Positions 8,336-49,454 of a stretch of 64,000 nt of DNA are shown piece after piece; positions within the stretch are counted from its first letter, which is position 1; every line of letters begins with the position of its first letter. The DNA is from Botryllus schlosseri (lineage: Eukaryota). Under the pieces are notes generated by a model. That model was not told where the DNA came from. It saw nothing but the letters and a program-made list of their open reading frames with translations, and did no database searches. The translations under genes and the position numbers were made by a program. The stretch is from the NCBI GenBank assembly GCA_051294905.1, contig CM119371.1, forward strand, positions 1,986,001-2,050,000, in the 5' to 3' direction.

Positions 8336-8827
8336 CGTTAGATGATACTTTTCCTTGATATTCTATTATGTGTATTTAGGGCTAATGCAACATCACTATG
8401 TTGGCGACAGGCCTGACTTGAACACACTAATTTTGCGAATTAAACTTATCTCCCAACACGGACACTCAATGAAGAGCACCCTGGAGACCCACATAAATGC
8501 TCCACAATTCTTGACATATTTATTACTGAGCATATAATAAGCTGACAAAACCTATACTTGAGTACTCCGAAATGTACAAGTACTTTTACCTTTACACGAC
8601 GTTTTTGTAAAATGAATACTAATTTTGAATAAAAATAAAAATTATGTACTCAAGTAGGTTTTTGTCTACACACACCAACTACTCAAGTGTTTATGACACA
8701 GGAATGATTCATTAAGTATAGCGCAAGCTGGCCGAACCTATACTTGAGTACTCCAAAATGAACAAGTACTTCGCTATGTACTCCCTCCACGTAAAAAGTG
8801 ACTAGGTTTTAGACTACTTTATCGATT

Positions 8828-10620
8828 TTCGATGTTGCGCAAATACCGCAAACTTTGCTTTCTTTCAGAGCTGGCAACTAAATGCAAGACAGACTTTTCG
8901 CAAAAGTCTCTATTCTGAAAATTTTATCACGTTAATACTTTAAAAACTTATACTTGAGCCCTACAAAATGTACATGTACTTTACCTTTACACGACGTTTT
9001 TTGTAAAATGAATACTAATTTTATTGAAAAAATAAAAGATAAAAAAAGAGCGAAAAATTACATTTTATACCGGAACGCAACAAGACAAATCGTATGAATT
9101 TGTAATCTACTTATTCATGACACAATATTAATTCTACTTGTATACTTTTTAATATTTTGTAACAATTTTATTAGTACTTAACTAAAATTCGGAATATAAA
9201 CCTATCGAAAAATTTGGTAACAAATTTCACATAGGCTATGCATACAAACGAGGAAAGGTACATCAACGCGTGTTAACTAATTGTATTATGTAGCTTGTAA
9301 TTCATGCAAGTTTCGAAACTTCTACACTGAGTCTTCTAAAGTAGATAGAATCGAAAAAACTAATCGAAAATATTTACGAAGTTTGAAAGCGATATATTTG
9401 GGTTTTTAAAAATTATTCATACCCATGATTCGAAATACTTTTACCTAACTTATGTTTTCGAAATAAGATAACCGTGAAGTGTACAAATTTCGATGTTGCG
9501 CAAATACCACAAACTTTGCTTGCTTTCAGAGCCAGCAACTAAATGCAAGACAGACTTTACGCAAAAGTTGCTATTCTGAAAATTTTGTCAAGGTAATAGT
9601 TTAAAAACTTATACTTGAGCACTACGAAATGTACAAGTACTTTATCTTTACACGACGTTTTTTGTAAAATGAATACTAATTTTATTGAAAAAATAAAAGA
9701 TAAGAAAAGAGCGAAAAATTACATTTTATACCGGAACGCAACAAGACAAATCGTATGAATTTGTAATCTACTTATTCATGACACAATATTAATTCTACTT
9801 GTATACTTTTTAATATTTTGTAACAATTTTAGTAGTACTTAACTAAAATTCGGAATATAAACCTATCGAGAAATTTGGTAACAAATTTCACATAGGTTAT
9901 GCATACAAACGAGGAAAGGTACATCAACGCGTGTTAACTAATTGTATTATGTAGCTTGTAATTCATGCAAGTTTCGAAACTTCTACACTGAGTCTTCTAA
10001 AGTAGATAGAATCGAAAAAACTAATCGAAAATATTTACGAAGTTTGAAAGCGATATATTTGGGTTTTTAAAAATTATTCATACCCATGATTCGAAATACT
10101 TTTACCTAACTTATGTTTTCGAAATAAGATAACGGTGAAGTGTACAAATTTCGATGTTGCGCAAATACCACAAACTTTGCTTGCTTTCAGAGCCAGCAAC
10201 TAAATGCAAGACAGACTTTACGCAAAAGTTTCTATTCTGAAAATTTTGTCAAGGTAATAGTTTAAAAACTTATACTTGAGCACTACGAAATGTACAAGTA
10301 CTTTATCTTTACTCGACGTTTTTTGTAAAATGAATACTAATTTTATTGAAAAAATAAAAAATATAAAAGAGCGAAAAATTTCATTTTGTCCCGGAACGCA
10401 ACAAGAAAAATCGTATGAATTTGTAAACTACTTATTCATGACATAACAATAATTCTACTTGTACACTTTTTCACATTTTATAACACTTTAAGTAGTACTT
10501 AACAGTTTCAGTTTTAAATAAAATACGGAATATAAACTAATCGAAAAATTCGGTAACCCATTTCGCGTAGGCTATGCATACAAATGAGGAAAGTTACATC
10601 AACGCGTGTTAACTAGTTGT
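8828..10620. repeat. ~661-bp AT-rich tandem repeat, ~2.7 copies; partial units at 8543-8790
   Basis: tttcgatgttgcgcaaatacc recurs at ~8828, 9488 and 10149; the first two units are near-identical and the third is more diverged. Confidence 0.92.
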
Positions 10621-13600
10621 ATCGAGTTATCGAATGATTTTTTCCTTACATCAAAACAACTAGAATGCGTAACTACAATAAAAACGTTTCTAAATAAGCT
10701 CCAGGGCATTGTGATTATGCAGCATACCAAATTTCATCACACATTTCATGATGGAACCACTTTAAAACTAACGCAGTTCTATAGCAACATTTGCCTAAAT
10801 CTGTTTTCGGTAGCGTGTACATATACATAGTCGATCGTGACTTGATTATTAAATTATGACATTATTAGACCAGGGTTGTGTTGAAGGTTATTACGATACA
10901 AACAAACTTTTCAGAAACATTGTTATAAACATATCGATTTGTAAAACTATATTAACATGTCTGAAATGTTTTGATTGGGAAGATTAAGTCGTGTTCGTAA
11001 AAACCACGCAGCGTATTGTCGATATCAGGAAATATTTTATAAACGTAATTGTCTCCAGTAACCAAGACTAAAGATGAAACAACAATTTCCTTTGTTGAAC
11101 AATAACCGGTACAATACTTTATCATCGTAATCTGCGGTGAGAATTGACACACTTTCGCACATTACCCGGTGTCAAGATATCACACTAGGTGAATTGATAT
11201 ACCGCCGCTTGATTAATATCTAATCCGTTCGCACCATTTCACATACTTTGATCATTACAAAAGTAAATTTAAATATGTTTGCTATATGCATTCAATTCAG
11301 TTAGAAATGTCTGGTGCACAACAATCGTGATATCAAGGAAGTAGTTGCTACACTGTCATTCACTTAACGTGTTTTGCATTGTTGTTCATTTGTAGTATTG
11401 ATTGAAATTGTTTTTGAACCGCCAAATAATAATTCCCGACATGAAACCAAGTCGCTGAAAGTCGTTACCATCACAACGAAACAATTTGTATAATGTCTGC
11501 CGAATGTATCCTAGAGTTAGGTGTACTAGAATTATTTGTCTAACACATACACCGACAATACAATCGAAAATTTTAGCGTTGTCATTCACTAAAGTAAATG
11601 TCATCACAATACTCTACCACTAAAAGACGTTACTTACATGTGATTGAATCCCTAACAATTACCTCACTATTCCAAAGAAATTTTACTCACTCGATGGATA
11701 TGAAACAGCGTCGCTTAATCGGTCTATATCGTTTTTTCTAAAGGTAAATCATATCCATCCAATAGAAAACAATTTTCACTAGCTTGGTAATGAAACCGAA
11801 GTCTTCATTCAATATTTTGTTTGTGTCAAATACTTTGCAATAAACACACTGGAGTGGTTGAGCTTTACATCATCAGGTTGTAATCTGTAAATCAAGCTTA
11901 CATCCGATTTGTAACTGTATTGTTTACCTAACCGAGTTGTATGCACAGTTTGATATTTTTGTCATTTAGTGATTGTTGAACATACCACTTCGAAATACTG
12001 CGTTGATCATAATTTCCATCATCATGATAAGCGAAGTACATTTCTTTTGAATTCATAACCATCGGTTTTTCTATGACATGATAAATTATTGACAAGTTCT
12101 GGTTAGAAGATTGGCTGCATATCACGAAAAATAATATACCACTCATATTGAGATACTGTTACTCCATTCATCGGTATTTTTTCCGTTTTCGATTTTCAAA
12201 CGAGTAAAATTTATTACTTGAGTTTCTCCGCCTAATCTAAATGTAAACTCGCCCGTCTTTCAACAACAAACAATGTTAAAAAAGTATGCAATCAAACACA
12301 ACAAGTTTTACTGTAGGACACTAATTCTTATCCCACATCCCACAACCCATTTCTTACCGAAGACATATGAAATATATTCATGTTACACGAAAATATTCGC
12401 TATTCCCATGCTACAAACCCGTACAATGATTGGTGGTGCTTTCAAAATGTTTTGATACCTCAAGAACTTTATTGTCTCAATGGATGTTCATGTATCTTAA
12501 TAATCAAATAGTTCAACACAGAACTAGTACGAACAGAAACACCAGAGTTGTTTACACAAAAGTTTATATGTGTACACTATGTGAATACCGTGTGTAAATC
12601 CAGCACAATTGTGGTATCCACCCGAGTTTAGTAAACACAATTTATGACACCGAGTCGCGTCATCTTTCATAAGACAACAAACCAAGGCTTCAGGATATGT
12701 CCATGTCATAGCAATAAATCAGCTACTCCAACAACATAGTGCATATGTTTTCTAGTTACGATGCTTACATCTTACACACAAATCAATCTACTTTGCTAAC
12801 GAAAAGTGGTGAGTCATCATATGGTTGTCCTCACAACAATACAACTAAACATACTATCATACAAAATGTTCGTTATAGTTTGCACACCAATGATACATCG
12901 TACAAGTAACAAGTCTCGAGAATCCAGTTATTCAAAAAACGTGAAAGTATTTCTACGCCAAGTCGTTATGTTGACGAAAGCGTATATTGTAATATCATGA
13001 TCGATTTGCATTCGTTGGTCACAAACTGTCACTACTCTAAATAATTCTTTTTCACTCAAACACAAAAGTATACTTGTCACCATTCGTTTCATCAAGCGCG
13101 AGTTCAAGAAACTTACTTACTGCGACATGAATTGCTAATTTTATGTTGTGTAAATAGGTAATAATTAATTTTAGTAACACTATATCAACATCATCTAGTT
13201 GTGCGAATAGATTTACATGTGGTCTTGTGGTTTTAATCGAAGTACACAGCACGGTCTAATGTAGAGTCATCTCTATTGTACAGCAACTCGGTCATCGGAA
13301 TGTATGCATTAAAATTTAAACAACGATCTTGTTTCGTCACGCGAAAAATATGTTCACTATCGCGATACTCTACACAAGATGTGCAAATCCTTTTCACACT
13401 CGTAATAGTATACCAACGACTACCGGCGACAACGTTTACCAACGACACTAAACATACGATACCTACTCAAGTAAAATTTCCATTTTCACCTGGAGGTCAG
13501 TCGTTACCCGAGTAAAAATACCATTTTTCTTTGGAGATCTGGCGTTTACCCAGTGTAAAAATACATTTTCTCTTGGTTATCTAGCTTTTCCTAGAATAAC

Positions 13601-14446
13601 AAAACCATTTTCATTATAAAATCTGACAAACACACCTGACAATTGGGTATTTGTTGTATTGACGATAGTTTGAAATAGATTACAACGAACAGTGACGGAA
13701 ATATACACAGACCCCCGGTTTCAGAGTATACCCCCATCAGTCGTATCACATCAATATCATCGGTGAACCACATACAATATACTCTTGTACACAGAAATGT
13801 GTGTTTTGGAAATTGGACAATAGTTTTCGACATGTCCACGATGTCCAGGTTCGCGCTTTAGGTTTTCCAGAGTCAAAGTGTCTGAATAAAACACCGCCTC
13901 GACTTGGGTAAATGTTTGGCGCACAGATAACAGCGGTCGGAAATCGAGGAATTTATGTTTCCGTCGGGTTAACAACACCGGGTTAATTGTGTTTACTATG
14001 TTGTGTCGCTCTTTATTGACCGACACATACAGCCCCATGCAGTTTGTAATCGGAAACCCCGAGAAAGTGTTAACCGGATCCGGATATCAACTCTGAATCG
14101 ATAAACCACACGCCACAACCTGTGTCTCTATGAAAATAACAAGACATCACGCAAATAAAGTATACTTCGTGATTATTTACCCACACATCGTGATTTAGCT
14201 GAATATGTAGTTTAGAAATTCTGTTTATTAATGTGTATCAAAATCATCGTCTTCTTTGTACGGCGTTACTGTGTGTCTCATCCTCGTGGATTCGTGTTAA
14301 ATTGGACTGAAGCTTGATTTACACGGGACCGATCCTGCGACAACGGATTATGTGTGTCCAGCTACTTACCGAGGCTATACATAAAAGTGAAGCCGATTTC
14401 CCTGATCCTGCCATCAATCCGTAATATCTGACCACTGCATAGGGAC
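10070..14446. repeat. Left arm (~4.4 kb) of a large inverted repeat
   Basis: The ORF track mirrors exactly (coordinate sum 36197) with 22159..26127; 14031..14446 is the reverse complement of 16099..16529. Confidence 0.97.
13463..13590. repeat. Three degenerate ~41-bp tandem units (mirrored at ~22607..22734)
   Basis: tactcaagtaaaatttccatttt / tacccgagtaaaaataccatttt / tacccagtgtaaaaatacatttt, each followed by a tggagatc-like motif. Confidence 0.65.
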
Positions 14447-14501
14447 TGAAAGACACAAACAACATTTCTTTATTTTTTTCACACAATTTAATGATCACAT
14501 T

Positions 14502-15185
14502 TTACATCATTACACTGACATGGCTAGCTACATGTCTTGCGAGTCCATTTTTTCGCCTAAATCTTTTCGCACAAATATGGCATTCGTAGACTCTGATGTC
14601 AGCGTGAATATCCAAATGCGACTTTAATTGGGTCTTTAGATGAAAATCTTTTCCACAGATCGGACATTTGTGGTCTTTCTCATCTTTATGGATACCCATG
14701 TGTCGTCTGAGCGAGCCTTCTCGACCGAACTCTTTCCCGCAAATTTCGCACTTATGAAGCCTGGCGTTGACATGTGCATTCATGTGATCCTTTAAACGAT
14801 GGGATTGAGTAAATGCTTTTCCACACACCCAACATTTGTGTTTTTTAATGACAAAGTGAGTAGCCACGTGGTTGGTGAGGTCTATTTGTCGCGTGAATAC
14901 CTTACCGCAAATTTGGCACTCGTGGTTTTTATCGGTAGAGTGAAAAGCTTCGTGGGTTTTTAGATTATCTTTCCGGATAAATCTTTTTCCACAAATTTGA
15001 CACTCATAGTTTTTAGCACCGAGGTGGCCGCGTTTGTGTCTCATAAAACTACTTCTCCGGATAAAACTTTCGCCACAAATACAGCAGTGATGATTCTTTA
15101 CACCTGCGTGTGCATCCATGTGGACATTCAAATTATGCTTCGAAGCCAATTCTTTTCCACAGATCAAGCATGTAAACGGATTCAT
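14502..15185 (-). CDS. C2H2 zinc-finger protein, 8 tandem fingers (227 aa from the ATG at 15185; may have upstream exons)
   Basis: Eight CxxC-x12-HxxxH units with no stops; a tttttag acceptor just upstream of the ATG; AATAAA on the minus strand at 14469-14474. Confidence 0.92.
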   Translation of the reverse strand: MNPFTCLICGKELASKHNLNVHMDAHAGVKNHHCCICGESFIRRSSFMRHKRGHLGAKNYECQICGKRFIRKDNLKTHEAFHSTDKNHECQICGKVFTRQIDLTNHVATHFVIKKHKCWVCGKAFTQSHRLKDHMNAHVNARLHKCEICGKEFGREGSLRRHMGIHKDEKDHKCPICGKDFHLKTQLKSHLDIHADIRVYECHICAKRFRRKNGLARHVASHVSVMM

Positions 15186-16529
15186 GGTTAACTTGCACAC
15201 TAAAAATAGTTCCTGAATACGACAAAAATGTTAAGCAACTCAGAACTGATGAATAATCGCGAAGTAATCTTATAACATTTCGGTTATATCATTACGATTC
15301 TTAATTTATTGATTTGAACCGGTGAGTCTTGGATTCGAGCGCGCCCCGCGGGGTCAATTGCACCCCACCGAGTGGTTCCGAGGGTCGCACGAAAGACTGC
15401 TTGAATTTTAAATACCAAACCCTCTTTTAGTGTTGATACGTGAACTAAAACCATACGATGTATAAGCCAGACCGGGAATTCGTTTACTACCAAAGCTTCG
15501 TCATCAACATATTCCACGATTACACAGTCTATACATACCTCACATGTCTAATCCGGATTAAAACTAAAGTCAATATATCAAGTTTATCGTTAGAATTAAA
15601 GCCACAACATGTCACCGAACTTTATTTGGTACAATTTTCACATTATACATTATGCGATCTGTGGTTCAAATTGTTACGCGATGTCTTCGAAATCTATAAT
15701 TCATAAAACAAGTTAACCAATTCTCATGCTTTTTTCTATGAATATACCACCACCCATAAAAGGGTATAAAAAACAAGAAAACCGATAGTCGGAATTCAGG
15801 AAGACACCGTAATTGCATCCACTGATCAAATTAACTACACCGGATATTCTAAAATTTCTGTCTCAATCCGTAAATATATTTCCGCTCCGCATTTGGTCCG
15901 TGAAGAGAAATTATTGCTGTTGTATAGTAACTATTGTGTACTTACACCCTGAACCGATTCTTAAACTGACACAATGCGTCCGAGTTCTTGAATTCTATAG
16001 ACCTAGTTTTCGAAAAAAATAAGTTCCTCTCGTACATTTTACCGGGAAATGCCCCACTGATTCGTTGGACACACACATGATCCATTGTCGCGGCATCCGT
16101 CCCTATGCAGTGGTCAGATATTGACGTACAGCAGATTACGGATTGATGGCAGGATCAGGGAAATCGGCTTCACTTTTATGTATAGCCTCGGTAAGTAGCT
16201 GGACACACATAATCCGTTGTCGCAGGATCGGTCCCGTGTAAATCAAGCTTCAGTCCAATTTAACACGAATCCACGAGGATGAGACACACAGTAACGCCGT
16301 ACAAAGAAGACGATGATTTTGATACACATTAATAAACAGAATTTCTAAACTACATATTCAGCTAAATCACGATGTGTGGGTAAATAATCACGAAGTATAC
16401 TTGATTTGCGTGATGTCTTGTTATTTTCATAGAGACACAGGTTGTGGCGTGTGGTTTATCGATTCAGAGTTGATATCCGGATCCGGTTAACACTTTCTCG
16501 AGGTTTCCGATTTCAAACTGCATGGGGCT

Positions 16530-18137
16530 TAGGGTTGTCCATAATTTGGAAAATCTCAAAATTTATGCGTATCCATGTCTCATTCTATAGATTATAGTTA
16601 AAAAACGTCAATGAACCTGCAATAAGCTCACGGGAAAGTCGTTAACATTTGTCTAAATGCGTTTGAAAGTAGCTGCCGTAGAGTGGGCGTGTTTGCGACC
16701 ATAGAACGGCAAGCAGACTAGTAATCACGAAATCACGGCGTTTGATTAGCTAATCTGCTACGCTTCAATGATCACGACATTGGTGGCTTGTTGATCAGCT
16801 GGTAAAGGAATCGGCTAACGGCGGTGATTCTGTAAGCGCATTGTAGGTTGGTCCGCCAGTCATTATTTAGGATTAATTCAGAACATGTTGAGTAACGAAA
16901 CACATGATGAACAAAGAACAGCTGCTTCACAATATCTTTAAATACATGACATGATGGCGTATTGTGAATGTAACCGTTGTAGCCTGTATGCCTTGATTTC
17001 ATTGATGGAAAGCACAAAAACAAGCGGAAAAATATTGCAAAGGCGCTTATGCAAGTGGCAAACGAATTTCTAGTTTCAGAGGAGATGTATCATCATTGAA
17101 TACAAATATAAAGCTTGACATTGACACTACTTTGTCTGATCTTATTAGGCTGTTGTCGTGGTGAAGTCTTGAATGCTGTAAGGGCTGGATTAATCTGTCA
17201 TTTATGCTTGGCACTTGTCAGATTATTGCAGCATAATGAATCATACCCGCAAGTGCTGTCAAAGTCTTCAATGATGCCGCGAAAAGAGGTCTAAAGATGA
17301 GCACAGACTATGCTGGTAGGACCAGCAAAAAGACAGTTTGCTTGCATTGCTTAGCATGTCCTTAATGAATCTAAGATCATTACCGGCTGCATGACGACTA
17401 ATGCTTGAATCAAACCAGACATGGACATAAAAATGATGTATTGAAGCGGTGTGGTAGTTACACTCTTCTTCAGAAATCCAATGTAAGCTACCTGGTCGGC
17501 CCACATATCTTCTGAGCATACAGGATTGTGTCCAGAATCCATATCACATGGTATGCTGCACCAGTTTGGCGATGTCTAATGTACCTTACCTGCACCCAGA
17601 AAAACAGGACCACTTGGTGTAATCTCAAGCATATCAGATATGTAGGCTATTTCTGGTATCCATACATACTTCTATAAGTTCACAACCATTCGCTGTTTCA
17701 CCTCTGTCATGCCTGCAATGGGTTATTGTTGCACTAAAGCTATCGGTACTTAGTTTTAACACTAAAACATTCAATGACCAGATGTCTCAGTTTATTATTA
17801 AATCACCAACATACAATGCGCTTACAGAATCATTGCCGTTAGCGAACTTCTTGAACTAGTATAAGCACATAATCAGCAAGCCGCTGTGGTCGTGACCATT
17901 CAAGCATAGCTGATTAACCAATGAAGAGACATGATTTCGTGATTACTAGTCTTCTCGCCGTTCTATGGTCGCTAACACGCCCACTCTAAGGCAGCTACTT
18001 TCAAACTCATTTAGACAAATGTTAACGACTTTCTTATGAGCTTATTGCAGGTTCATTGATGTTTTTTATCAATAATCTACAGAATGAGACATGGATACGC
18101 ATCTTTGTTGAGATTTTCCAAATTATGGACAACCCTA
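16530..18137. mobile_element. Internally deleted hATm-type element A
   Basis: ~200-bp imperfect TIRs starting tagggttgtccataatttggaaaatctc; transposase fragments RHAAGNDLRFIKDML and NDAAKRGLKMSTDYA. Confidence 0.85.
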
Positions 18138-18713
18138 GTATGTACATGCAAGTTCCCTAGTCCCACTTATTACTCGTTTCGCGCAGTGTGCTTACAATAT
18201 TATGAATTAATTAATTAGCTAGAGCAACAGTATATATATTATTTATCGCCTATATTTAAATTCGCTCATTTCATTTCAGATCAAACTGCCGACATTGCAT
18301 ACGCAATTTACGCTCGGAAAATTTCACATTTCTATCACAACTATCGCGCTATGCACTTCACCTGATGATGCAGGTGAGTTAGGCTACATTTCCGTATAGA
18401 TTTGCATTATGCCGATTTTACAAGTCCATAAGCTGCTGCTTTTAGATATGTGATTTTAATAGCTAGTGCACTGATGCTTTTCCGATAGTGAATAAAATCT
18501 ATAGCTAAACCTATGTCTATGCTATAATTTATCTCCCATTTTAAAACGCTATGCCACCGTGGCTTGAAGCTATATCTTAACATTTCAGATCAGCGACAAG
18601 CACTTCCATCTAGCACTAATACCTTGCTTGTTGCGGTTTTATAACTATAAATCTCATTTCCACTAAAATTTCAACGAACTGCGCTCGCATAAAGAAATTA
18701 AGTTCATGAAGGG

Positions 18714-21700
18714 TAGGGTTGTTCAAAATTTGGAAAATGTTTGGAATTCTGCGTGTCCATCGCTTATTCTGTAGATTATTGTTAAAAAACAATAATGGGC
18801 TTGAAAGAAGCTCGCAGGAAAGCCGGTAATATTTGTCTAAATGTGTTTGAAAGTAGCCGTCGGCGAGTGGGCGGGGAATCGATGAAGTGGGCGGGCAAAG
18901 AGAAGCCATTAATCCTGATTGGTTGAAGCCGGTAATAATAAGCTAATGATTGGCTGAAAGACCGACTTTGTGAACACTGCTGGTAACGATTTTTGCGTGC
19001 TGTTGTGCAGTCGTTTCTGTTGGTGGCATTACAGATATGATATATTGCCTTTCTTAATGTTGTCATCAAGAGTCCATAGTACAACATCGCAACCGCCTAA
19101 GTTAATATCTACCTGCAGAAAGTGCTATGTATTGCACAGATGCTCTCGCTAGTTGAGATACGAATAAACTAGATGCATGTATCTTGCTACCTTCAACCTT
19201 TCCAAAAGATACTGACAGTGAGTGAAACTCAAAAATTTACCACCAGGAGTCAACAACTCGGTAGTACTTGTTATGACTGGTCGACGTCTCACCCATAAAC
19301 GAACACATATTACACTTTATATTCACATTTGAATGAAGGCGAAAAGCACTATTTACAAAATACATTAAAAAAGTACGTTGCAGATCAGTGTTGCATTGTC
19401 AGGCACAAGTTGCAGATTACAGGCTTTTGATTAGAGTTGACTTCCTGCTGTCTCCAACTGTCTTCCTATGCTGTTCTACAGCTTGAAGCAGACTGTCTCT
19501 TTGTCGTTCATTGTCAGTCAAGATTGCAGCACAGTCTGTGCTTAGCTTTACACCTCGTTCTGCGGCATCATTAACGACTTTGACAGAACTGATGTAGGAG
19601 CTCATTCTGGTGTAGGAATCTGATAAGTGCCAAACATCAACCGGTTGAGCTAGCCACGCCCCAGAGCATTCAAAAACATCAAATATGTACCAATGTGGCC
19701 CAATAAAATCAGACAAAGTAGTGTCCTTGTTGATGTGTACAGTTGCATTCAACGAGGGCGGGCCTCTCCTGAAACTTGAAGTTCGCTCTACCTGCAGGAG
19801 CGTCTTTGCCATATTTTCCCGGGTTTCATTGCTTTCACTCGGCGAAAACAAGGCATATACAGCGGTTTCCTCCACGATATACCAGTCATGCTTTAAAAGC
19901 TTTTGTGAAGCAGCTTTGGAAACTTGTTCATCATGTTCCTTGTAACTCAACATGTCCTGGATGAATCTCAAGTCGTTACCGGCTGCATCACGACCGATTC
20001 TGGAAGCAACCCAGGCAGGGATATAAAAGAGAACTAAAAATAAATTGAAGCGATGCAGCAGTTCCACTTCTTCAGATTTGTAATGTAACTGATCAGCCCA
20101 CATGAACATCTTCTGAGCATACAGAATTGTGCCCATCCACCTTGCATGGTGTGTTGCACCAGGTTTGTGATGATTTATATCTCCATCTGCACCGAGAAGA
20201 GCAAGAGCATTAGTCACACATTGTTTGTAGTCATCCCGTGTGAAGAAATCTTTTCTGGCGAGTAGTAGCTTGAAGTTCTCAACTGTCATTGCTGCTCGTT
20301 CTTTAAAGCATATAGGAATAGTAAGAGTCTTGAATTGCTGTTTTCTGTCAAGACTGCTCCAGCTCTTCTTAAGGTGGGCAAACCATGTGTTCTCTGGTCC
20401 GGTTGTTGCTTTTCCAAATAAACATTTCCAGACGTCTTTGACTACTAGCTCATACACATGGTGCGGACACGCATGGTAAAAAACCTACTTTTCTAGAAGG
20501 TCCTCAAGGATCTTCGCTGCACCCTTCTTCCAGCCGCTGTTGCTTGCTGTGGTGTCAAAAACCAAAGCTGTTACAGCATCTTGTATATCCCACTTTTTAA
20601 TTATGTCGAAAGTAGTTTCAGCTTGTGTCTGACCTGCCGCATTTTGTATCTTCTGAATTCCAAGTAGTTTTCCTTCCGAGTATTGAGGTTGACAAGATAG
20701 AACAATTGACAAAGCTTCATATCGATTTCCTAATCTATCCTCTGTGAGCTTTCCATCCCAATGAATGGCAACATGCTGTGGTCTATTTTCGGCAAATTTT
20801 TCCAAAATGCCCTGAGCTATTTCCAGGCGATTTGTTTCCCCTGGCTCTCTTCGTTGAAGATCTTGACAGGGAGAACATGGCTATATCTCCTCCACAAGCC
20901 TTAAAAATGCTCCCATCAGCATCATTGCATCGTTGTCAGTTACTTGCAATCGATCCAGAGCTTGGGACACATGCGTATTTTTCATTATATTTTTAGGTGC
21001 CATCAGTTTAATGGATTGGGTCGAGGTGCCAAGTCCAACATCAGCATCATAGTCAGAACTTGAACTCAAACTGTCACCCTCTTTTGAAGATGACGATGAT
21101 GCTAAAACAACATAGTCACAACTTGAGTCGTGTGAAACGTTTTCAACAGTTTGATCTGCAATGGCTGCTGTTTTCTTTTTGAGGTCTTTAGCCAGAATTT
21201 TGTCTCTTCCCAACATTATTGACTGGCGAGATTGCCGTTGATCTTCATAAAATGCAATGTCTTCAAGCTTTCTTTCATGTGATAGATAAATGTCATTTTT
21301 TATTGTTGTTATGGCATCTCTACTTCCAATATCCCACAGCTTGTCCAAATCATCAGTGAATTTTCTCCTCTTACCCTTGGGATCACTTTCCTGTTTCGGA
21401 TTCTTCTTCAGATCACGCCATCTTTCGTGCAGGTTTTGAAGTGATCGCACCACATGTGATTTCTGCATTGTCGCAATTCTCGCCATTTTCCACACTGTCA
21501 TTACATCATCCACCACCACAGTACATAGTTCATGAGTAGGGGTTGACTGAGGACAATGCTCTTTCAGATGCAGCAAGTAACTCATTACTTCTCGTATAGT
21601 AGGTAATCTCGAGCCACAGATGTAATCGCAAGTATATCCGACCAAGTACTGCTCAGATCTTGTTCTTCGCTGCGGCATGTGTGCACTGTGCAATCTTTCG

Positions 21701-22158
21701 CCGTTTTGCCTCTGCCATGACTGCACTATTGTTGCTCCAAAGCATAAACTACTGCTATCGACTCTGAAGCATTCAAAGAACACGTGTTACCGTACTACTA
21801 ATGACTCATCAACCCACAACGCGCTTGTACAGAACCACAACCGCTACTAACAGACTCTACTTCAGCAAAACAGACTTTCAATTTAGTAAAGCGAAGCTCC
21901 CGAATCCCAGTCAGCTGTTGCAGTAATCAGTGAAGCTTAGCCGATTACCCAATCAAGAACCGTGGTTTTGTGATTGCCCGCCTCTGCTGTCGGTTGCCCG
22001 CCCACTCTTCAACAACGACTTTCAAACGCATTTAGACAAATGTTAGCGGCTTTCCTGGGAGCTTCTTTCAAGCCCATTATTGTTTTTTAACAATAATCTA
22101 CAGAATAAGCGATGGACACGCAGAATTCCAAACATTTTCCAAATTTTGAACAACCCTA
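18714..22158 (-). mobile_element. Full-length hATm-type element B
   Basis: ~140-bp TIRs starting tagggttgttcaaaatttggaaaatg around a near-complete transposase gene. Confidence 0.88.
19417..21678 (-). pseudogene. hATm-type transposase (~750 codons) with frameshift(s) near 20800-20900 and an in-frame TAG at 20485-20487
   Basis: Motifs HWDGK, FDTTASNSG, ACPHH, HHARWM and VVNDAAERGVKL across ORFs 20881..21783, 20485..20805 and 19417..20457. Confidence 0.85.
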
Positions 22159-22166
22159 ATGGGGCT

Positions 22167-22610
22167 GTATGTGTTTGTCAATAAAGAGCGACACAACATA
22201 GTAAACACAAGTAACCCGGTGTTGTTAACCCGATGGAAACGTAAATTCCTCGATTTCCGACCGCTATTATCTGTGCGCCAAACATTTACCCAAGTCGAGG
22301 CGGTGTTTTATTCAGAAACTTTGACTCTGGAAAACCTAAAGCGCGAACCTGGACATCGTGGACATGTCGAAAACTATTGTCTAATTTCTAAAATACACAT
22401 TTCGGTGTACAAGAGTATATTGCATGTGGTTAACCGATGATATTGATGTGATACGACTGATGGGGGTATACTCTGAAACCGGTGGTCTGTGTATATTTCC
22501 GTCACTGTTCGTTGTAATCTATTTCAAACTATCGTCAATACAACAAATACCCAATTGTCAGGTGTGTTTGTCAGATTTTATAATGAAAATGGTTTTGTTA
22601 TTCTAGGAAA
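22167..22610 (+). pseudogene. Polinton A32-like packaging ATPase remnant (5' part near 16430..16529; mirror copy ~13590..14110 on minus)
   Basis: Walker B-like (F/L)TDDI near 22430, TVRCNL (RxN) at 22504 and FYNENGFVIL at 22576, in shifting frames. Confidence 0.5.
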
Positions 22611-22734
22611 AGCTAGATAACCAAGAGAAAATGTATTTTTACACTGGGTAAACGCCAGATCTCCAAAGAAAAATGGTATTTTTACTCGGGTAACGACTGA
22701 CCTCCAGGTGAAAATGGAAATTTTACTTGAGTAG

Positions 22735-23870
22735 GTATCGTATGTTTAGTGTCGTTGGTAAACGTTGTCGCCGGTAGTCGTTGGTATACTATTACGAGTG
22801 TGAAAAGGATTTGCACATCTTGTGTAGAGTATCGCGATAGTGAACATATTTTTCGCGTGACGAAACAAGATCGTTGTTTAAATTTTAATGCATACATTCC
22901 GATGACCGAGTTGCTGTACAATAGAGATGACTCTGCATTAGACCGTGCTGTGTACTTCGATTAAAACCACAAGACCACATGTAAATCTATTCGCACAACT
23001 AGATGATGTTGATATAGTGTTACTAAAATTAATTATTACCTATTTACACAACATAAAATTAGCAATTCATGTCGCAGTAAGTAAGTTTCTTGAACTCGCG
23101 CTTGATGAAACGAATGGTGACAAGTATACTTTTGTGTTTGAGTGAAAAAGAATTATTTAGAGTAGTGACAGTTTGTGACCAACGAATGCAAATCGATCAT
23201 GATATTACAATATACGCTTTCGTCAACATAACGACTTGGCGTAGAAATACTTTCACGTTTTTTGAATAACTGGATTCTCGAGACTTGTTACTTGTACGAT
23301 GTATCATTGGTGTGCAAACTATAACGAACATTTTGTATGATAGTATGTTTAGTTGTATTGTTGTGAGGACAACCATATGTTGACTCACCACTTTTCGTTA
23401 GCAAAGTAGATTGATTTGTGTGTAAGATGTAAGCATCGTAACTAGAAAACATATGCACTATGTTGTTGGAGTAGCTGATTTATTGCTATGACATGGACAT
23501 ATCCTGAAGCCTTGGTTTGTTGTCTTATGAAAGATGACGCGACTCGGTGTCATAAATTGTGTTTACTAAACTCGGGTGGATACCACAATTGTGCTGGATT
23601 TACACACGGTATTCACATAGTGTACACATATAAACTTTTGTGTAAACAACTCTGGTGTTTCTGTTCGTACTAGTTCTGTGTTGAACTATTTGATTATTAA
23701 GATACATGAACATCCATTGAGACAATAAAGTTCTTGAGGTATCAAAACATTTTGAAAGCACCACCAATCATTGTACGGGTTTGTAGCATGGGAATAGCGA
23801 ATATTTTCGTGTAACATGAATATATTTCATATGTCTTCGGTAAGAAATGGGTTGTGGGATGTGGGATAAG
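22735..23870 (-). pseudogene. Protein-primed family B DNA polymerase remnant, C-terminal part (mirror copy ~12330..13462 on plus)
   Basis: In the left-arm copy, SLFP (12397), LIPQELY, CTLC (12571), WYPPEF (12612) and FIRQQTKASGY (12666) occur in the expected order of SLYP...LCxxC...GTWxxxEL...FLKxKQExSGxP. Confidence 0.55.
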
Positions 23871-23936
23871 AATTAGTGTCCTACAGTAAAACTTGTTGTG
23901 TTTGATTGCATACTTTTTTAACATTGTTTGTTGTTG

Positions 23937-24928
23937 AAAGACGGGCGAGTTTACATTTAGATTAGGCGGAGAAACTCAAGTAATAAATTTTACTCGTTTG
24001 AAAATCGAAAACGGAAAAAATACCGATGAATGGAGTAACAGTATCTCAATATGAGTGGTATATTATTTTTCGTGATATGCAGCCAATCTTCTAACCAGAA
24101 CTTGTCAATAATTTATCATGTCATAGAAAAACCGATGGTTATGAATTCAAAAGAAATGTACTTCGCTTATCATGATGATGGAAATTATGATCAACGCAGT
24201 ATTTCGAAGTGGTATGTTCAACAATCACTAAATGACAAAAATATCAAACTGTGCATACAACTCGGTTAGGTAAACAATACAGTTACAAATCGGATGTAAG
24301 CTTGATTTACAGATTACAACCTGATGATGTAAAGCTCAACCACTCCAGTGTGTTTATTGCAAAGTATTTGACACAAACAAAATATTGAATGAAGACTTCG
24401 GTTTCATTACCAAGCTAGTGAAAATTGTTTTCTATTGGATGGATATGATTTACCTTTAGAAAAAACGATATAGACCGATTAAGCGACGCTGTTTCATATC
24501 CATCGAGTGAGTAAAATTTCTTTGGAATAGTGAGGTAATTGTTAGGGATTCAATCACATGTAAGTAACGTCTTTTAGTGGTAGAGTATTGTGATGACATT
24601 TACTTTAGTGAATGACAACGCTAAAATTTTCGATTGTATTGTCGGTGTATGTGTTAGACAAATAATTCTAGTACACCTAACTCTAGGATACATTCGGCAG
24701 ACATTATACAAATTGTTTCGTTGTGATGGTAACGACTTTCAGCGACTTGGTTTCATGTCGGGAATTATTATTTGGCGGTTCAAAAACAATTTCAATCAAT
24801 ACTACAAATGAACAACAATGCAAAACACGTTAAGTGAATGACAGTGTAGCAACTACTTCCTTGATATCACGATTGTTGTGCACCAGACATTTCTAACTGA
24901 ATTGAATGCATATAGCAAACATATTTAA
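23937..24928 (+). pseudogene. Polinton major capsid protein remnant (mirror ~11269..12260; third copy from 26282 split by a hAT)
   Basis: GEFTFRLGGETQVINF at 23944, NMSGILFF, and C-terminal DITIVVHQTFLTELNA at 24863 resemble Polinton MCP termini; many deletions. Confidence 0.45.
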
Positions 24929-27412
24929 ATTTACTTTTGTAATGATCAAAGTATGTGAAATGGTGCGAACGGATTAGATATTAATCAAGCGGCGGTATAT
25001 CAATTCACCTAGTGTGATATCTTGACACCGGGTAATGTGCGAAAGTGTGTCAATTCTCACCGCAGATTACGATGATAAAGTATTGTACCGGTTATTGTTC
25101 AACAAAGGAAATTGTTGTTTCATCTTTAGTCTTGGTTACTGGAGACAATTACGTTTATAAAATATTTCCTGATATCGACAATACGCTGCGTGGTTTTTAC
25201 GAACACGACTTAATCTTCCCAATCAAAACATTTCAGACATGTTAATATAGTTTTACAAATCGATATGTTTATAACAATGTTTCTGAAAAGTTTGTTTGTA
25301 TCGTAATAACCTTCAACACAACCCTGGTCTAATAATGTCATAATTTAATAATCAAGTCACGATCGACTATGTATATGTACACGCTACCGAAAACAGATTT
25401 AGGCAAATGTTGCTATAGAACTGCGTTAGTTTTAAAGTGGTTCCATCATGAAATGTGTGATGAAATTTGGTATGCTGCATAATCACAATGCCCTGGAGCT
25501 TATTTAGAAACGTTTTTATTGTAGTTACGCATTCTAGTTGTTTTGATGTAAGGAAAAAATCATTCGATAACTCGATACAGCTAGTTAACACGCGTTGATG
25601 TAACTTTCCTCATTTGTATGCATAGCCTACGCGAAATGGGTTACCGAATTTTTCGATTAGTTTATATTCCGTATTTTATTTAAAACTGAAACTGTTAAGT
25701 ACTACTTAAAGTGTTATAAAATGTGAAAAAGAGTACAAGTAGAATTATTGTTATGTCATGAATAAGTAGTTTACAAATTCATACGATTTTTCTTGTTGCG
25801 TTCCGGGACAAAATGAAATTTTTCGCTCTTTTATATTTTTTATTTTTTCAATAAAATTAGTTTTCATTTTACAAAAAACGTCGAGTAAAGATAAAGTACT
25901 TGTACATTTCGTAGTGCTCAAGTATAAGTTTTTAAACTATTACCTTGACAAAATTTTCAGAATAGAAACTTTTGCGTAAAGTCTGTCTTGCATTTAGTTG
26001 CTGGCTCTGAAAGCAAGCAAAGTTTGTGGTATTTGCGCAACATCGAAATTTGTACACTTCACGGTTATCTTATTTCGAAAACATAAGTTAGGTAAAAGTA
26101 TTTCGAATCATGGGTATGAATAATTTTGTAGCATGGGAATAGCGAATATTTTCGTGTAACATGAATATATTTCATATGTCTTCGGTAAGAAATGGGTTGT
26201 GGGATGTGGGATAAGAATTAGTGTCCTACAGTAAAACTTGTTGTGTTTGATTGCATACTTTTTTAACATTGTTTGTTGTTGAAAGACGGGCGAGTTTACA
26301 TTTAGATTAGGCGGAGAAACTCAAGTAATAAATTTTACTCGTTTGAAAATCGAAAACGGAAAAAATACCGATGAATGGAGTAACAGTATCTCAATATGAG
26401 TGGTATATTATTTTTCGTGATATGCAGCCAATCTTCTAACCAGAACTTGTCAATAATTTATCATGTCATAGAAAAACCGATGGTTATGAATTCAAAAGAA
26501 ATGTACTTCGCTTATCATGATGATGGAAATTATGATCAACGCAGTATTTCGAAGTGGTATGTTCAACAATCACTAAATGACAAAAATATCAAACTGTGCA
26601 TACAACTCGGTTAGGTAAACAATACAGTTACAAATCGGATGTAAGCTTGATTTACAGATTACAACCTGATGATGTAAAGCTCAACCACTCCAGTGTGTTT
26701 ATTGCAAAGTATTTGACACAAACAAAATATTGAATGAAGACTTCGGTTTCATTACCAAGCTAGTGAAAATTGTTTTCTATTGGATGGATATGATTTACCT
26801 TTAGAAAAAACGATATAGACCGATTAAGCGACGCTGTTTCATATCCATCGAGTGAGTAAAATTTCTTTGGAATAGTGAGGTAATTGTTAGGGATTCAATC
26901 ACATGTAAGTAACGTCTTTTAGTGGTAGAGTATTGTGATGACATTTACTTTAGTGAATGACAACGCTAAAATTTTCGATTGTATTGTCGGTGTATGTGTT
27001 AGACAAATAATTTTAGTACATCTAACTCAGTGGTTCTCAACCTTTTTTACCCGCGGACTCATCTCAAGCTCGCCAGTATACCCGCGGACTCAAGCTATAT
27101 ATTACTGATTTTTTTTTATCCAAGGGAGTGTAATACGGTATCAACAAAAAATGAGCTAAAATTGAGTCAAGGAAGCTTTCTTAAATCTGTCTTTCCACAT
27201 CTGTCGGCTTTGCAATTCAAGCAACTATTCAGTAAATGCAGACCACATCTCGATTTCCACTTATATTAGACAACTATAGATTGTTTCTGTGATTAGCACA
27301 TGTCCCTACGATTTGTAATTTCCCAAATAGTCTGTAAGTGAACAAGTCGCCATAATCAATCACCAGCACTCAGCGTATATCGCACCGGAAACCTGTGCAA
27401 TGTGCATACGTG

Positions 27413-28998: not shown

Positions 28999-29419
28999 TA
29001 GGTCTGTCAATTACATGTTCCGAAATCGTATCGGAAGTGGAAGAAAAAGTGTGCCGAGCCGATTAAGTTACTGAAAATTCCTGTGTTCGCGGACTCACCA
29101 AGGACCTTCCGCGGACTCAAATGAGTCCGCGGACTCGGGGTTGGGAAACACTGATCTAACTATAGGATACATTTGGCAAACATCGTACAAATTGTTTCGT
29201 TGTGATGGTAACGACTTTCAGCGGCTTGGTTTCATGTCGGAATTATTATTTGGGGGTTCAAAAACAATTTCAATCAATACTACAAATGAACAACAATGCA
29301 AAACACGTTAAGTGAATGACAGTGTAGCAACTACTTCCTTGATATCACGATTGTTGTGCACCAGACATTTCTAACTGAATTGAATGCATCTAGCAAACAT
29401 ATTTCAATTTACTTTTGTA

Positions 29420-29935
29420 ATGATCAAAGTATGTGAAATGGTGCGAACGGATTAAGTATTAATCAAGCGGCGGTATGTCAATTCACCTAGTGTGATATCT
29501 TGACACCGGGTAATGTGCGAAAGTGTTTCAATTCTCACCGCAGATTACGATGATAAAGTATTGTACCGGTTATTGTTCAACAAAGGAAATTGTTGTTTCA
29601 TCTTTAGTCTTGGTTACTGGAGGCAATTACATTTGTAAAATATTTCCTGATATCCACAATACGCTGCGTGGTTTTTACGAACACGGTTTAATCTTCCCAA
29701 TCAAAACATTTCAGACATGTTAATCTAGTTTCACAAATCGATATGTTAATAACAATGTTTCTGAAAAGTTTGTTGGTATCGTAATAACCTTCAACACAAC
29801 CCGGTCTAATAATGTCATAATTTAATAATCAAGTCGTGATCGACTATTACAAAATCTCATATGTCAAAATCAATGTGTCAATTCATATGTTTACATCGTG
29901 AGAATTTTCAATATAACGCATGCGTTCGATTGTAA
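29420..29935 (+). pseudogene. Polinton minor capsid (penton) remnant; truncated copies ~24942..25370 and mirror
   Basis: TGYCSTKEI, NTLRGF, IFPIKTFQ (29691), then HVNLVS..YVNNN..PG resemble the penton pattern GxY..LLGF..IxPIxxIxIHCNLV..SYVN..PG. Confidence 0.5.
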
Positions 29936-36495: not shown

Positions 36496-37691
36496 GCCTG
36501 TACCCATGTATAGCACGCACCCTGCATTCACACTATAGTTTTGTTTCAGTAAAGGTGTCATTTTGTTTTGCACGCGCGTGCAGCAAGCAATTACCTCATT
36601 TCGATCGCATGCTAAAGGCAACTCAACCGGCGGTCGCGTGCTGTGCAGTGTGCACACGGCTCCCGTTACATGGCAACACGCTTCTAGCAAATTGGCAGCG
36701 CGTTACACTGATATTACGAATTACCGGGCATGATGGCCGAAAGTGATGTGCGATTGGAAAAAACATGAAGGTGTGATTTCAAGTTTTTCATCGAAGGAGA
36801 TTATTTTCAATGCTTGTTCCCAGCAAACACGAGATATATTCAGGACATGTTCGGATATCTTTTTGCTATCCTAATTATCTCAAAATTGTGTTTATGCATA
36901 TCTTGTGCGGAAACGTATCTTGAATACATCTTTTTCTTATCCAACAACTTTCGTCAAAATGCCGAAAATTTATTTGTGAGGAATCAAATTCGATTATTGT
37001 TTCATTTTACGGTATAATTTGTCTACTATCAATTTTATTGATGTCTTACTCTTATGGGGTGATATGTCACCGTAATTATTGCCACTATCGAATCATAGCA
37101 ATTTACATCGTTGTAAATTGCTATGATCGAATGTTTTTCCTTTTGTCACACGCCGCTTTCGCGTGATTTTGCAGATATTTTGATTCTTGGCCATCCCAAA
37201 TTTTGGAATCCGAATCCATTACGGCTCCAGGCGGCAATTTGAAAGTCTTATGAATTTCCAATTCTGGGTAATCCGAAAAACTGCTGCCAAAATAATGCTA
37301 TACTATTTGAAAGTTCAATAGAAAAATCCTGCTACAATCCGACTGCCAAAGCAAATTCAGAATCCGGATCCACTCCGGCTACGCTGAAAACCATCTAGCC
37401 GTCTAGCCGTCGGAGCCGAGTGACTCAATGGCTTGAGGCACTTTCTCCCATGCGAACACCCGTTTCGGCGCGCAGGTTTCAAATCGTCAGACAAAAGACA
37501 GAAGCGCTCTGATAGTGGCGGCTTTCAGTGCAGATATCGTTGTCGTTTTGGTTTTAGTTGCGTTCAGGGAAATCGCAGTTAATTGAGGCTAATCCAAGCA
37601 TATTTCTATAGAATAATACCGAAAACTGCACTGTATAGGCTATGCTTCTTATATAATCATAGTTAAGGACTTGACTTGAGGTAATACGATA

Positions 37692-38147
37692 CACTACAAA
37701 AAAAAATTAGACAAATTTGGTCTCAAATTTAAGAAATGAGGAGGATTTGGTCTCATTTTCAACAATTTCAGTCTCACTGATGGTCTCATTTTACCACCCA
37801 CTCACCATAAATGCTATTTTCGACTCGGGCAACCATATATATATTGATCTGAATAGTGCATGTGAGTAGTAAGTGGCATGTACCTTGATAACTATATCTA
37901 GTGAATATCTAGTAAACTCCTTAGTACAGTATCATCCCGACACTGCAAATTCTGGTCTCTCTCATGCTTCCCCTTCGCTCAGACCCTAACATTGAAATGG
38001 ATGCCCCCAAACCACCCCTACTATTTTCGATCAGTTCCGGTATTACTTTTAAGACAGAAAGTACTTGGTAAGACTAATTTGTCTTTAAGACTTTTTCTGC
38101 TAAAAAATCGATTTGAGACCAAACTTGTCTAATTTTTTTTTGTAGTG
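37692..38147. mobile_element. CACTA MITE
   Basis: TIRs cactacaaaaaaaaattagacaa / ttgtctaattttttttttgtagtg; ta flanks; ggtctca subterminal repeats. Confidence 0.85.
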
Positions 38148-39399
38148 TATAACTTTTGAACTAGTCTAGTCTTTCTGGTAATATGGTGACCATATCATAA
38201 CTGGGCGGCTATGTCTGAATTTAATTCTTTGATTCATATCAAACCAACTAATAAACTATAGAACTTGTGCGGCTAATCATGAGCACATTTTCTGGATATC
38301 AACTTACTCCAACCTTACTTTAAGGATTTGCTGTAAATGAATATAGGTGGGTATTAGTCGATCAATAAATCGAGCAATCATTTGCTGTTGTGCTTTTTGT
38401 TGAACAAGAACAATCGGTTGCTGTTGCTGTAATACATAAAAGCTGGAAAACCGATGTAGAAGTGATCTCATTGATTCAGACTAGCTTATATCTTATGAAT
38501 TGTGAATTGTGTGAAATTGTTTGTATCTATAATAGTATTGCATGTCTGGTGGTTGCGTAAGAATGCAAATAGCACGGTAACGCTAAGAATAAAAAGCAAC
38601 CATAATATGATAATCGCAATCGGTCTCTGTATAAAAGATACAGATGAAATGCTCATACAGTAAGTTATAAACTCAGAATTAGCGTACTGTTTTCCAAGTG
38701 GGCCTACCTTTGTCATCTACATTATCCATCTGTTTTAGATGTATTGAAGGTAGCTTTTAGTGATATAATAAACGCTGCGGAGAGTAGTGGCTTGCTCACG
38801 TCTTTGTCATTGTCTGGACTGAAAATGAAGCGCAGCGGCCAAAACGAAAACGTCAGCTGAACAAACAATTTTTGAATAATTCGGCGTCAACTGATGGTCA
38901 AGGACTCAAGGTATACCCTTTTATTCCGTGAAATATGGTACATATATGTAAAACGTTTATAATTTGTAGATGATGTTTTTCCTGCACTGCAAGGAAGAAA
39001 CGTAATCCAAGTATTCAGATACAAGACATGCCAATTTCAAGAATGCGGTCATCTTATGATTCTGGCAATGAAAGTGTGGCAAGCAGGAGTGATATCAATG
39101 ATGCTCGCAATGCAAGTTTGCCATCATTTAGCGAAAAGAGTGTTCAAGAATGGCATGATCTATGATCCCAACATTAAATGTAACGGCCAGAGATCTAAGT
39201 CCTGCAGTAAGTTCCTAGCACTTTGATGCGTTCTCGAATTTGAGAATAAAGTCTCTCTGTTTTTCAGATGCTCCTTCATTTAAAATCATCGTTGAACTAC
39301 AAAATTTTGACCATCAACAATGTGGCCTGTCATAAAGTAATGGTAAGTATATCACATATGATGGTCAATCTAACTTTCTTGTAATCAAATCCTTTTTAG

Positions 39400-41477: not shown

Positions 41478-42266
41478 TTGCGCAGTTCTGTGCTGATTTA
41501 ATACACGAACAAAGCCATGCATGATTTGTAAAATTATCAGTCAGTCTTCCTTGATAAGGGCAGTGCAGGATGTGGCAGGTCCAGGTACCTAACTAGGGTC
41601 AGGGGTCACCTAGGGTCAGGGGTCATCTGGGGTGAAGCAAGATATCATGACAATGTCATACAGGTATCTTTGAAGATATCCTATATATGTGCAAATGTGT
41701 CGACAGATTTATATAAACAATACATATGACTAGATATATTTTGAAGTAGTTGAGACATATACACAATATATATGCAATATATTCTGTGTTTGCTGGGTTG
41801 TACCCATGTATAATACGCACCCCCTACTTTAGGACAAAAAATCGGTTAATTTTGCGCATTATACATTGAAAATTACAGTTCCAGTAGAATTTTATAATCC
41901 CTGGCTTAACATTTTTAGAACTAATAAAATACTGTAACGGTACTTCTAAACCTATTATTCTCGAAGCAACTACACTATCATAGTACAGTTTCACACCTGA
42001 AACTGTTTTAGCGGGTACGATCCATGACTGACAACCTGTCATTCTTCTCATGACTCCAAACACCACTTGTGTCATTAATGTCAAGCCATGCAGTTTAATT
42101 AAATCTTTAAATAGTTCGACCATTCCAAAGTGTAACTTAGTTACCAGCCTGTCTGACGTTGATCAATTTAATTGAATATACAAGGTTCTCGTTCAAACGA
42201 ATCCGATAAAATCATAAAGCGCCGTTTGAGTAACGAATTCCAAGAGACTCTTTGGGGTACAGAACT

Positions 42267-48977: not shown

Positions 48978-49454
48978 ATATTGTAAATATGCGTGGAGGT
49001 GTTGGCATAACAAGTGTTGAGGATATGTTACGGTACACGCGGACACAAGTGACTGTCTGCAGCGAAATTATTCGCCCTCGAACGACAAGTGCGTGGTGAG
49101 CTCGTGATCGATATACCGATTACTAGGTATGTAATGCCGACAGTTAACACGTTGATGCGCGTAAAATTGAGAATCAGCTATTTGTTTAATTACTTATTAT
49201 ATATTCATAATGCTACTTTATATAAGTCAATCCGTGTCGGGGCGCCTAATACAAATTTCTACTATATTTAATCTGATTCTCGGTATGACTCGAAATGACA
49301 CACATATTTATAATCATAACAGATCATTTCTCCTCACTATTTAAGTCAACAAAAAAGCAAAAGGCGGACAAGTACGACAGTATGAGACAGACCACAAGCA
49401 TCACTTTACACACCCGAACGTATGGACACCTAAAACACGCACCAGAATCTAGCG

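Follow-up and report, generated by a model that had tools for sequence, protein, structure and literature searches.

We analysed a stretch of 64,000 nucleotides from the genome of Botryllus schlosseri (GenBank assembly GCA_051294905.1, contig CM119371.1, positions 1,986,001 to 2,050,000 of the forward strand), which is called the window below and whose first letter is position 1. In this window, a block of 5,629 bp is composed of two different DNA transposons, elements A and B, and a spacer of 576 bp between them (Table 1). A degenerate 25-mer of the element tips, with two degenerate positions, matched the 64 kb four times, at 16530(+), 18137(-), 18714(+) and 22158(-), and none of 100 shuffled sequences contained any match; these four matches delimit A (1,608 bp) and B (3,445 bp). 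The inverted ends of A aligned over 266 nt at 88% without gaps and over 333 nt at 84% with gaps, and its two ends are identical over the first 30 nt and alike at 92 of the first 100. Those of B aligned over 169 nt at 93% ungapped and over 186 nt at 91% gapped, with the first 100 nt identical (100/100). The first 9 nt are common to all four tips. Between A and B, the ends share 24 of their terminal 30 letters and 77-78 of the terminal 100, and several long blocks are conserved. An earlier note on this DNA had described two elements, each with its own inverted ends. The end alignments and tip matches bear this out; its coordinates for A, B, the spacer and the flanking 8-mers are exact, and the two 15-letter ends that it quoted are correct, differing at 2 of 15 places.

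The 8-mers flanking the elements showed that the block, not either element, carries the mark of an insertion. Element A is flanked by ATGGGGCT and GTATGTAC, which are alike at 2 of 8 places, and element B by ATGAAGGG and ATGGGGCT, alike at 4 of 8, so that neither has a target-site duplication of its own. The outer pair is ATGGGGCT on both sides (8/8). The 8-bp duplication of hAT type is thus present for the composite only. Altogether ATGGGGCT occurs four times in the window, at 16522, 22159, 14031 (minus strand) and an unrelated position, 49825; the expected number was 1.02, and 1 of 100 shuffles reached four.

The block lies within a large inverted duplication (10070-14445 and 16100-26127), whose arms of about 4.4 kb are 99.1% identical and enclose a centre of 1.65 kb (14446-16099). 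A three-way alignment around the site showed that the left palindrome arm carries ATGGGGCT once. When 16530-22166 was removed, the right arm (16100..26127) aligned to the left arm (14445..10070) in one piece over 4,391 nt at 99.1%, with 23 mismatches and 1 gap. Two findings, the realignment of the arms in one piece and the lone 8-mer of the left arm, show the block to be one insertion that post-dates the duplication of the arms, and because no base is extra or missing after its removal, there is no room for a second event at the locus. Neither A nor B was inserted here alone, because its other tip would then adjoin the 8-mer, and neither does. The differences between the flanks of B are not due to later mutation, since they would amount to four changes in 8 bp where the arms differ by 0.9%. 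The anatomy fits a macrotransposon: two complete elements lack duplications of their own, their outer ends share one, and the empty site shows the whole block as one insertion. The earlier note had claimed that the 8-mer flanks only the outer ends, that the opposite arm keeps the empty site, that neither element has its own duplication, and that the left end of A and the right end of B were used in one event. The single copy at 14031-14038 and the realigned arms agree with the former claims, and all the tests that the window allows support the last. An internal duplication pair, which the note had named as evidence for one element nested in the other, was looked for and none is present, and nested insertion was rejected. 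We conclude that one integration with one 8-bp duplication joined the left end of A and the right end of B to this site.

Table 1. Features of the composite block and of the palindrome arms that hold it and its empty site
Feature	Position	Strand	Description
Element A	16530..18137	.	1,608-bp non-autonomous hATm-like
A left inverted end	16530..16852	+	pairs with 17805-18137
A right inverted end	17805..18137	-	pairs with A left end
Spacer	18138..18713	.	576 bp between A and B
Element B	18714..22158	-	3,445-bp hATm-like; transposase gene on minus strand
B left inverted end	18714..18898	+	pairs with 21974-22158
B right inverted end	21974..22158	-	pairs with B left end
B transposase reading frame	19417..21726	-	769 codons + TAA
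Left outer 8-mer ATGGGGCT	16522..16529	+	adjoins A left tip
Right outer 8-mer ATGGGGCT	22159..22166	+	adjoins B right tip
Empty target site, single ATGGGGCT	14031..14038	-	opposite palindrome arm
Left palindrome arm	10070..14445	-	collinear with right arm after insert removal
Right palindrome arm, left of insert	16100..16529	+	
Right palindrome arm, right of insert	22167..26127	+	

The reading frame of B (21726..19420, minus strand) contains two in-frame TAG codons, at 20881-20883 and 20485-20487. In contigs of three other public runs the second TAG is AAG, and the same contigs lack a base at 20838 and have an additional one behind 20904; the first TAG lies within a locally shifted stretch, since these two differences bracket it. 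This copy of B is decayed, and the common sequence of the family appears to be open at those places. No Pfam family was found in the B frame, and a search of the Protein Data Bank (PDB) with its protein sequence gave no match at E up to 1. The profile of the B family gave five PDB matches at E up to 10, the best at 0.2, and none of them is a transposase. Of 8,000 candidates scored against the frame, 69 were homologues at E up to 0.001; the closest is 80% identical, and the few named ones are uncharacterised proteins of crab, aphid and bee. Pfam searches on 31 aligned homologues detected no transposase family; 12 families, unrelated ones, were each matched by 1-5 members. In the ESM Atlas the family matched only unnamed eukaryotic clusters, most commonly arthropod, and a profile search of 1.84 billion representatives gave 24,185 matches at E up to 0.001, of which the best 150 are unnamed and provide no named link to hAT.

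Structure comparison was performed with an AlphaFold model of the homologue P0001, which is 80% identical to the B frame, in place of the broken copy in the window (predicted local distance difference test score 84.2, predicted template modelling score 0.66). With Foldseek, the 10 best rows were all chains of the Hermes transposase (E 2e-7 to 8.7e-5). With VIA-align 2, six Hermes entries reached Z 16.7-18.4 at a root-mean-square deviation of 4.0-5.4 with 365-382 residues aligned, and the next families scored lower (ISCth4, Z 11.4; P element, 9.2; RAG1, 8.1). The alignment to Hermes spans model residues 261-764 and chain residues 114-609, and the model has the Hermes-type catalytic fold, an RNase H-like core split by a large helical insertion. 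Residues D324 (HWDGK), D391 (FDTT), C420/H423 and E723 (NDAAER) are invariant in the 31 sequences and fit the pattern D, D, CxxH, E; their equivalence to the catalytic residues of Hermes is putative. On the evidence of this predicted structure, which settles the superfamily, the protein family encoded by B is hAT-like.

The narrower label hATm, given in the earlier note, is supported as well. According to the available text of PMC6004678, hATm elements make duplications of 8-9 bp and end in TAGGGTG/CACCCTA, and the inverted ends of some members measure 417-575 bp. The termini of A and B (TAGGGTTG ... CAACCCTA) have one extra T compared with the published ones, the duplication is 8 bp, and the inverted ends are 186 nt (B) and 333 nt (A). 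A relative at 29% identity (E 2e-69) is found on L001, a contig of the viral collection, between the exact termini TAGGGTG...CACCCTA. The hATm-type element on this contig (5057-8583) has inverted ends of about 440 nt at 97% and a transposase frame broken into three; a (TA)n run adjoins it on the left, and its flanks show no matching 8-bp duplication. Because of the near-published termini, the 8-bp duplication, the long inverted ends, the Hermes-like fold and the L001 relative, we accept the label as likely for A and B, with the reservation that the Pfam dimerisation domain reported for hATm-6 was not found in this protein family. Their likeness to the published family lies in the duplications of 8-9 bp, similar termini and long inverted ends (PMC6004678).

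Element A has no interior frame longer than 105 codons. Two pieces of its interior are homologous to the B open reading frame, an inverted one at 16871-17315 (70%) and a direct one at 17355-17612 (71%). Both ends of A resemble the right end of B over 246-255 nt, compared with 160 nt for the left end of B. Judged from these alignments, A is a rearranged non-autonomous member of a sister subfamily to B. The 64-kb window contains no further copies of A or B, and so it offers no control for the duplication made by a single element.

The spacer begins with GTATGTAC and ends with ATGAAGGG, which are presumed to be single copies of the duplications that A and B themselves had made. It has no other copy in the 64-kb window and no convincing reading frame, and Rfam gave no match on 13500-23000 at E up to 0.1. 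An exon-like stretch is located at 18282-18366, between AG and GTGAGT. The spacer also contains an exact 12-nt direct repeat (18272-18283 and 18581-18592), for which the chance expectation in 576 nt is about 0.01 by estimate; both copies look like a splice acceptor with the first four exon bases, and the second lies near the start, at 18563, of a low-depth contig described below.

We searched public sequencing runs for the stretch, and 20 of the 24 runs listed hold part of it, the best share being 0.69; seawater and marine metagenome runs also hold part. Contigs were placed for four runs, X1, X3, X6 and X16. Run X1 gave 25,621 contigs on 6.5 kb, with thousands on A and B, and the two families are therefore highly repeated. 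Three of the runs, X3, X6 and X16, carry the labels of three other coded organisms, and contigs from them match B at about 99% (200/200 and 526/527 letters, for example); remnants of one plentiful marine animal, near relatives and interspecies transfer are candidate explanations. These three runs have no cover on 16100-16316 (X3, depth 0.52) and none on 22176-22392; here and below, summed contig depth is not copy number. In the spacer, 11 different contigs of X1 have T where the window has A at 18494, and in one contig of this run 18335-18434 is replaced by 32 other letters with the GT donor kept. The left and middle parts of the spacer thus exist in several versions. Contigs of X3 and X16 are also found on the spacer, and a 174-nt low-depth contig of X1 covers 18563-18736, from the spacer into a B-type tip, with 174/174 letters identical. 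The spacer is therefore at least partly a piece of another repeat. The earlier note had spoken of captured intervening DNA: that 576 bp were carried inside one insertion stands, that they lay between A and B at a donor is the more probable of two readings, and a view of them as unique host DNA is unsupported, as part of them occurs in several versions in public runs.

We consider macrotransposition to be the best reading of the 5,629-bp block, and a reasonably probable one. A and B would have been inserted independently, 576 bp apart, at a donor site. Transposase supplied in trans would have brought the left end of A together with the right end of B, and A, B and the DNA between them would have moved as one unit. 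The inverted duplication being already in place, ATGGGGCT in its right arm would have been cut with an 8-bp stagger and joined to the two tips, and gap filling would have made the single outer duplication. Of the duplications that A and B had made at the donor, only the inner copies would have travelled with them: GTATGTAC after A and ATGAAGGG before B. We infer that the spacer was contiguous at the donor, that the move was by cut-and-paste and that one transposase may recognise both kinds of end. Such cross-recognition would be plausible because of the 9 shared tip nt, the likeness at 24/30 and 77-78/100 positions, and the conserved blocks. The earlier note had expected an intact donor, with each element still flanked on both sides by its own duplication. 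This part of it calls for revision: according to the available text of PMC9910405, excision in macrotransposition leaves a footprint at the donor, and a cut-and-paste move normally leaves only that.

Several observations weigh against macrotransposition as described. The reading assumes that a single enzyme would act on ends of both types. With its two TAG codons and shifted stretch, this copy of B is unable to make its transposase, so that either another copy acted or the decay came later. The Pfam hAT dimerisation domain (PF05699) was detected in 0 of 31 family members (hmmscan, E up to 0.1), and in this the family differs from hATm-6, for which the available text of PMC6004678 reports the domain; the structural alignment reaches Hermes residue 609 despite this non-detection. 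No donor locus or footprint was seen in four exact scans, two of metagenome contigs and two, by DNA pattern, of the viral collection: metagenome contigs gave 0 matches to a 25-mer of the A-to-spacer junction and 0 to the degenerate A/B tip 25-mer, and viral contigs gave 0 to the tip of B and 0 to a 22-mer of the spacer. Among the 32 contig pieces listed (26,454 more exist), none bridges any of the four junctions by the rule of 31 letters on each side, and the X1 contig at 18563-18736 reaches only 23 nt into B; X1 may moreover be the source sample. Finally, when the last 14 nt of the spacer (18700-18713) are joined to its first 8 (18138-18145), the resulting 22 letters agree in register with the empty target (16516-16529 plus 22167-22174) at 14 places, which plain macrotransposition leaves unexplained; the match was noticed post hoc, and 53 of 400,000 random 22-mers of the window equalled it. 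Two candidate accounts of it were considered. Paralogy of spacer and target was rejected (Smith-Waterman score 20, a value also reached by 240 of 500 shuffles and by 170 of 500 pieces of the window), and a strong target-site preference behind the resemblance of the flanks is unsupported, since the motif is missing from the single further B flank among the pieces listed, which is a loose end in X6 at 18714.

The register match would make sense under a composite insertion, in which transposition of reversed ends is followed by re-replication and the spacer is the right flank of A fused to the left flank of B. The right tip of B and the left tip of A would face each other at the donor, be cut, and be inserted ahead of a replication fork; A, B and short outer flanks would be re-replicated, the forks would abort, and the two broken ends would be joined. 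In that case ATGAAGGG and GTATGTAC would have been neighbours at a donor resembling the target. The maize cases described in the available text of PMC4270019 share the exact outer anatomy, the 8-bp duplication and an end-joined inner junction. In three runs the summed depth falls 3- to 4-fold, and in X6 more than 50-fold, from the bin 18270-18486 to 18487-18703, and this drop, together with the start of the low-depth contig at 18563, fits a spacer that combines two kinds of DNA. The depth step could arise equally well at the edge of a repeat within contiguous DNA, depth not being copy number, and the joined spacer has no wider homology to the target by the Smith-Waterman score and shuffles given above. 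The side-by-side version requires A to have landed directly beside B. The inner flanks in maize are kilobases long (8,754 bp of Ac plus flank; an insertion of 19,341 bp; PMC4270019) compared with 576 bp for both together here. On account of the post hoc register match we keep this explanation as a minor possibility, an unlikely one. If true, it would be natural evidence, from an animal and from hATm, for the transposition-induced re-replication so far described in maize. Macrotransposition is favoured over it because no fine-tuning is needed and because the maize inner flanks are measured in kilobases whereas the whole spacer here has 576 bp.

The interior of the block could also be unreal at this locus. 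An assembler that left one abundant copy for another could have produced the right end of A, the spacer and the left end of B, and the high repetition of both families (the 25,621 X1 contigs) together with the lack of a bridging piece among those listed agree with such an error. Both outer junctions must nevertheless be real, given the shared 8-mer and the restored empty site, so that the left end of A and the right end of B would remain. The two elements are about 70-80% alike, too different for collapse, and the X1 contig agrees with the spacer-to-B junction at all of its 174 letters. The window also resolves 4.4-kb arms of 99% identity, which suggests that long reads were used. We regard an assembly artefact as very improbable. 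The least probable reading, in our view, is that of several local events, in which one element came first and the rest was added by nesting, break repair, gene conversion or ectopic recombination. Repeat-rich DNA often contains nested elements, and the flanks of B do share half of their letters. The four differing letters are not credible as mutations against the 0.9% divergence of the arms, there is no internal duplication pair for either element, and the left tip of A and the right tip of B directly adjoin the 8-mers, where the other tip of the first-inserted element should also be found. A conversion tract would, in addition, require a crossover within the first 9 nt of a tip.

The palindrome around the block has features of its own. 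An open frame in its centre (14502-15230, minus strand; 242 codons) encodes six or more C2H2 zinc fingers (zf-C2H2, E 2.5e-42). In public runs, some segments of the arms are repetitive in their own right, and X3 and X16 both have a loose end at 16520 that represents a diverged empty copy of the target region. Duplicates of arm segments, both direct and inverted and at 98-100%, lie beyond the right arm (23780-24079 = 26125-26424; 24761-25060 / 29239-29538; 11514-12417 / 26125-27028), and the palindrome is thus partly re-duplicated. A 661-bp unit is present three times in tandem at 8827-10448, the other two copies matching the first at 95% and 76%, and incomplete copies of it recur in inverted orientation where the right arm ends (25694-26127); Tandem Repeats Finder missed the tandem copies, its longest period being 500. 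A second large inverted structure, 36818-41797 / 44826-48978, is formed by 13 collinear blocks of 144-540 nt with 91-99% complementarity.

In bacterial composite transposons, two copies of an insertion sequence, usually the same one, mobilise the DNA between them by way of their outer ends; their enzymes and hosts are different, and they serve as an analogy only. The macrotransposons of maize Ac/Ds are closer, as they are hAT elements in which the outer ends of two nearby elements are used, one 8-bp duplication is made and the inner DNA is carried (PMC9910405, available text). There, copies or fragments of one family are involved, often kilobases to tens of kilobases apart, and the evidence includes genetics, known donors and footprints (PMC9910405). 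In the present case the pair comes from different subfamilies (77-78% alike over the terminal 100 nt), sits in an animal genome and would have left a presumed donor. In Tam3L of maize White Cap, the inner elements have no duplication of their own and the outer ends share one of 8 bp (10.1101/082677). That macrotransposon was established by the same sequence logic: an intact element without its own duplication and with non-contiguous flanks, a far end of a second element with the matching 8-mer, and an empty reference site. Tam3L carried genes over 1.9 Mb and its donor locus was identified (10.1101/082677), whereas the DNA carried here is 576 bp and the empty site is a paralogous palindrome arm. 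The maize composite insertions reported in eLife in 2014 also have two ends outside, non-transposon DNA inside and one 8-bp duplication, as here, but their inner DNA, in the available text, consists of two re-replicated outer flanks joined by repair, usually of kilobases (PMC4270019).

In a limited search of the open-access literature on macrotransposition, the nearest animal precedent was a proposal for a P element of Anopheles gambiae, AgaP2-P12MITE, in which the ends come from two subfamilies and neighbouring copies are proposed to have moved en bloc (PMC1562414, available text). It belongs to the P superfamily and is a short miniature inverted-repeat transposable element left after deletion, and the source, as far as available, gives no empty-site control (PMC1562414); in B. 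schlosseri both elements, each complete from end to end, and the spacer persist.

The mechanism is already established, known but rarely caught, and the DNA carried in this case is small; what is unusual is the animal host, the little-studied hAT family and the pairing of ends from two subfamilies. A natural example is clear when the site is also known in its empty state, when both elements are complete and when one duplication encloses them, and this window offers all three. The locus shows that ends of two subfamilies only 77-78% alike are usable together. Neighbouring cut-and-paste elements can move or duplicate the DNA that adjoins them, and in maize this has given new loci and altered gene dosage. 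In a genome with both families in great abundance, such events should recur and would be a steady source of small segmental transfers.

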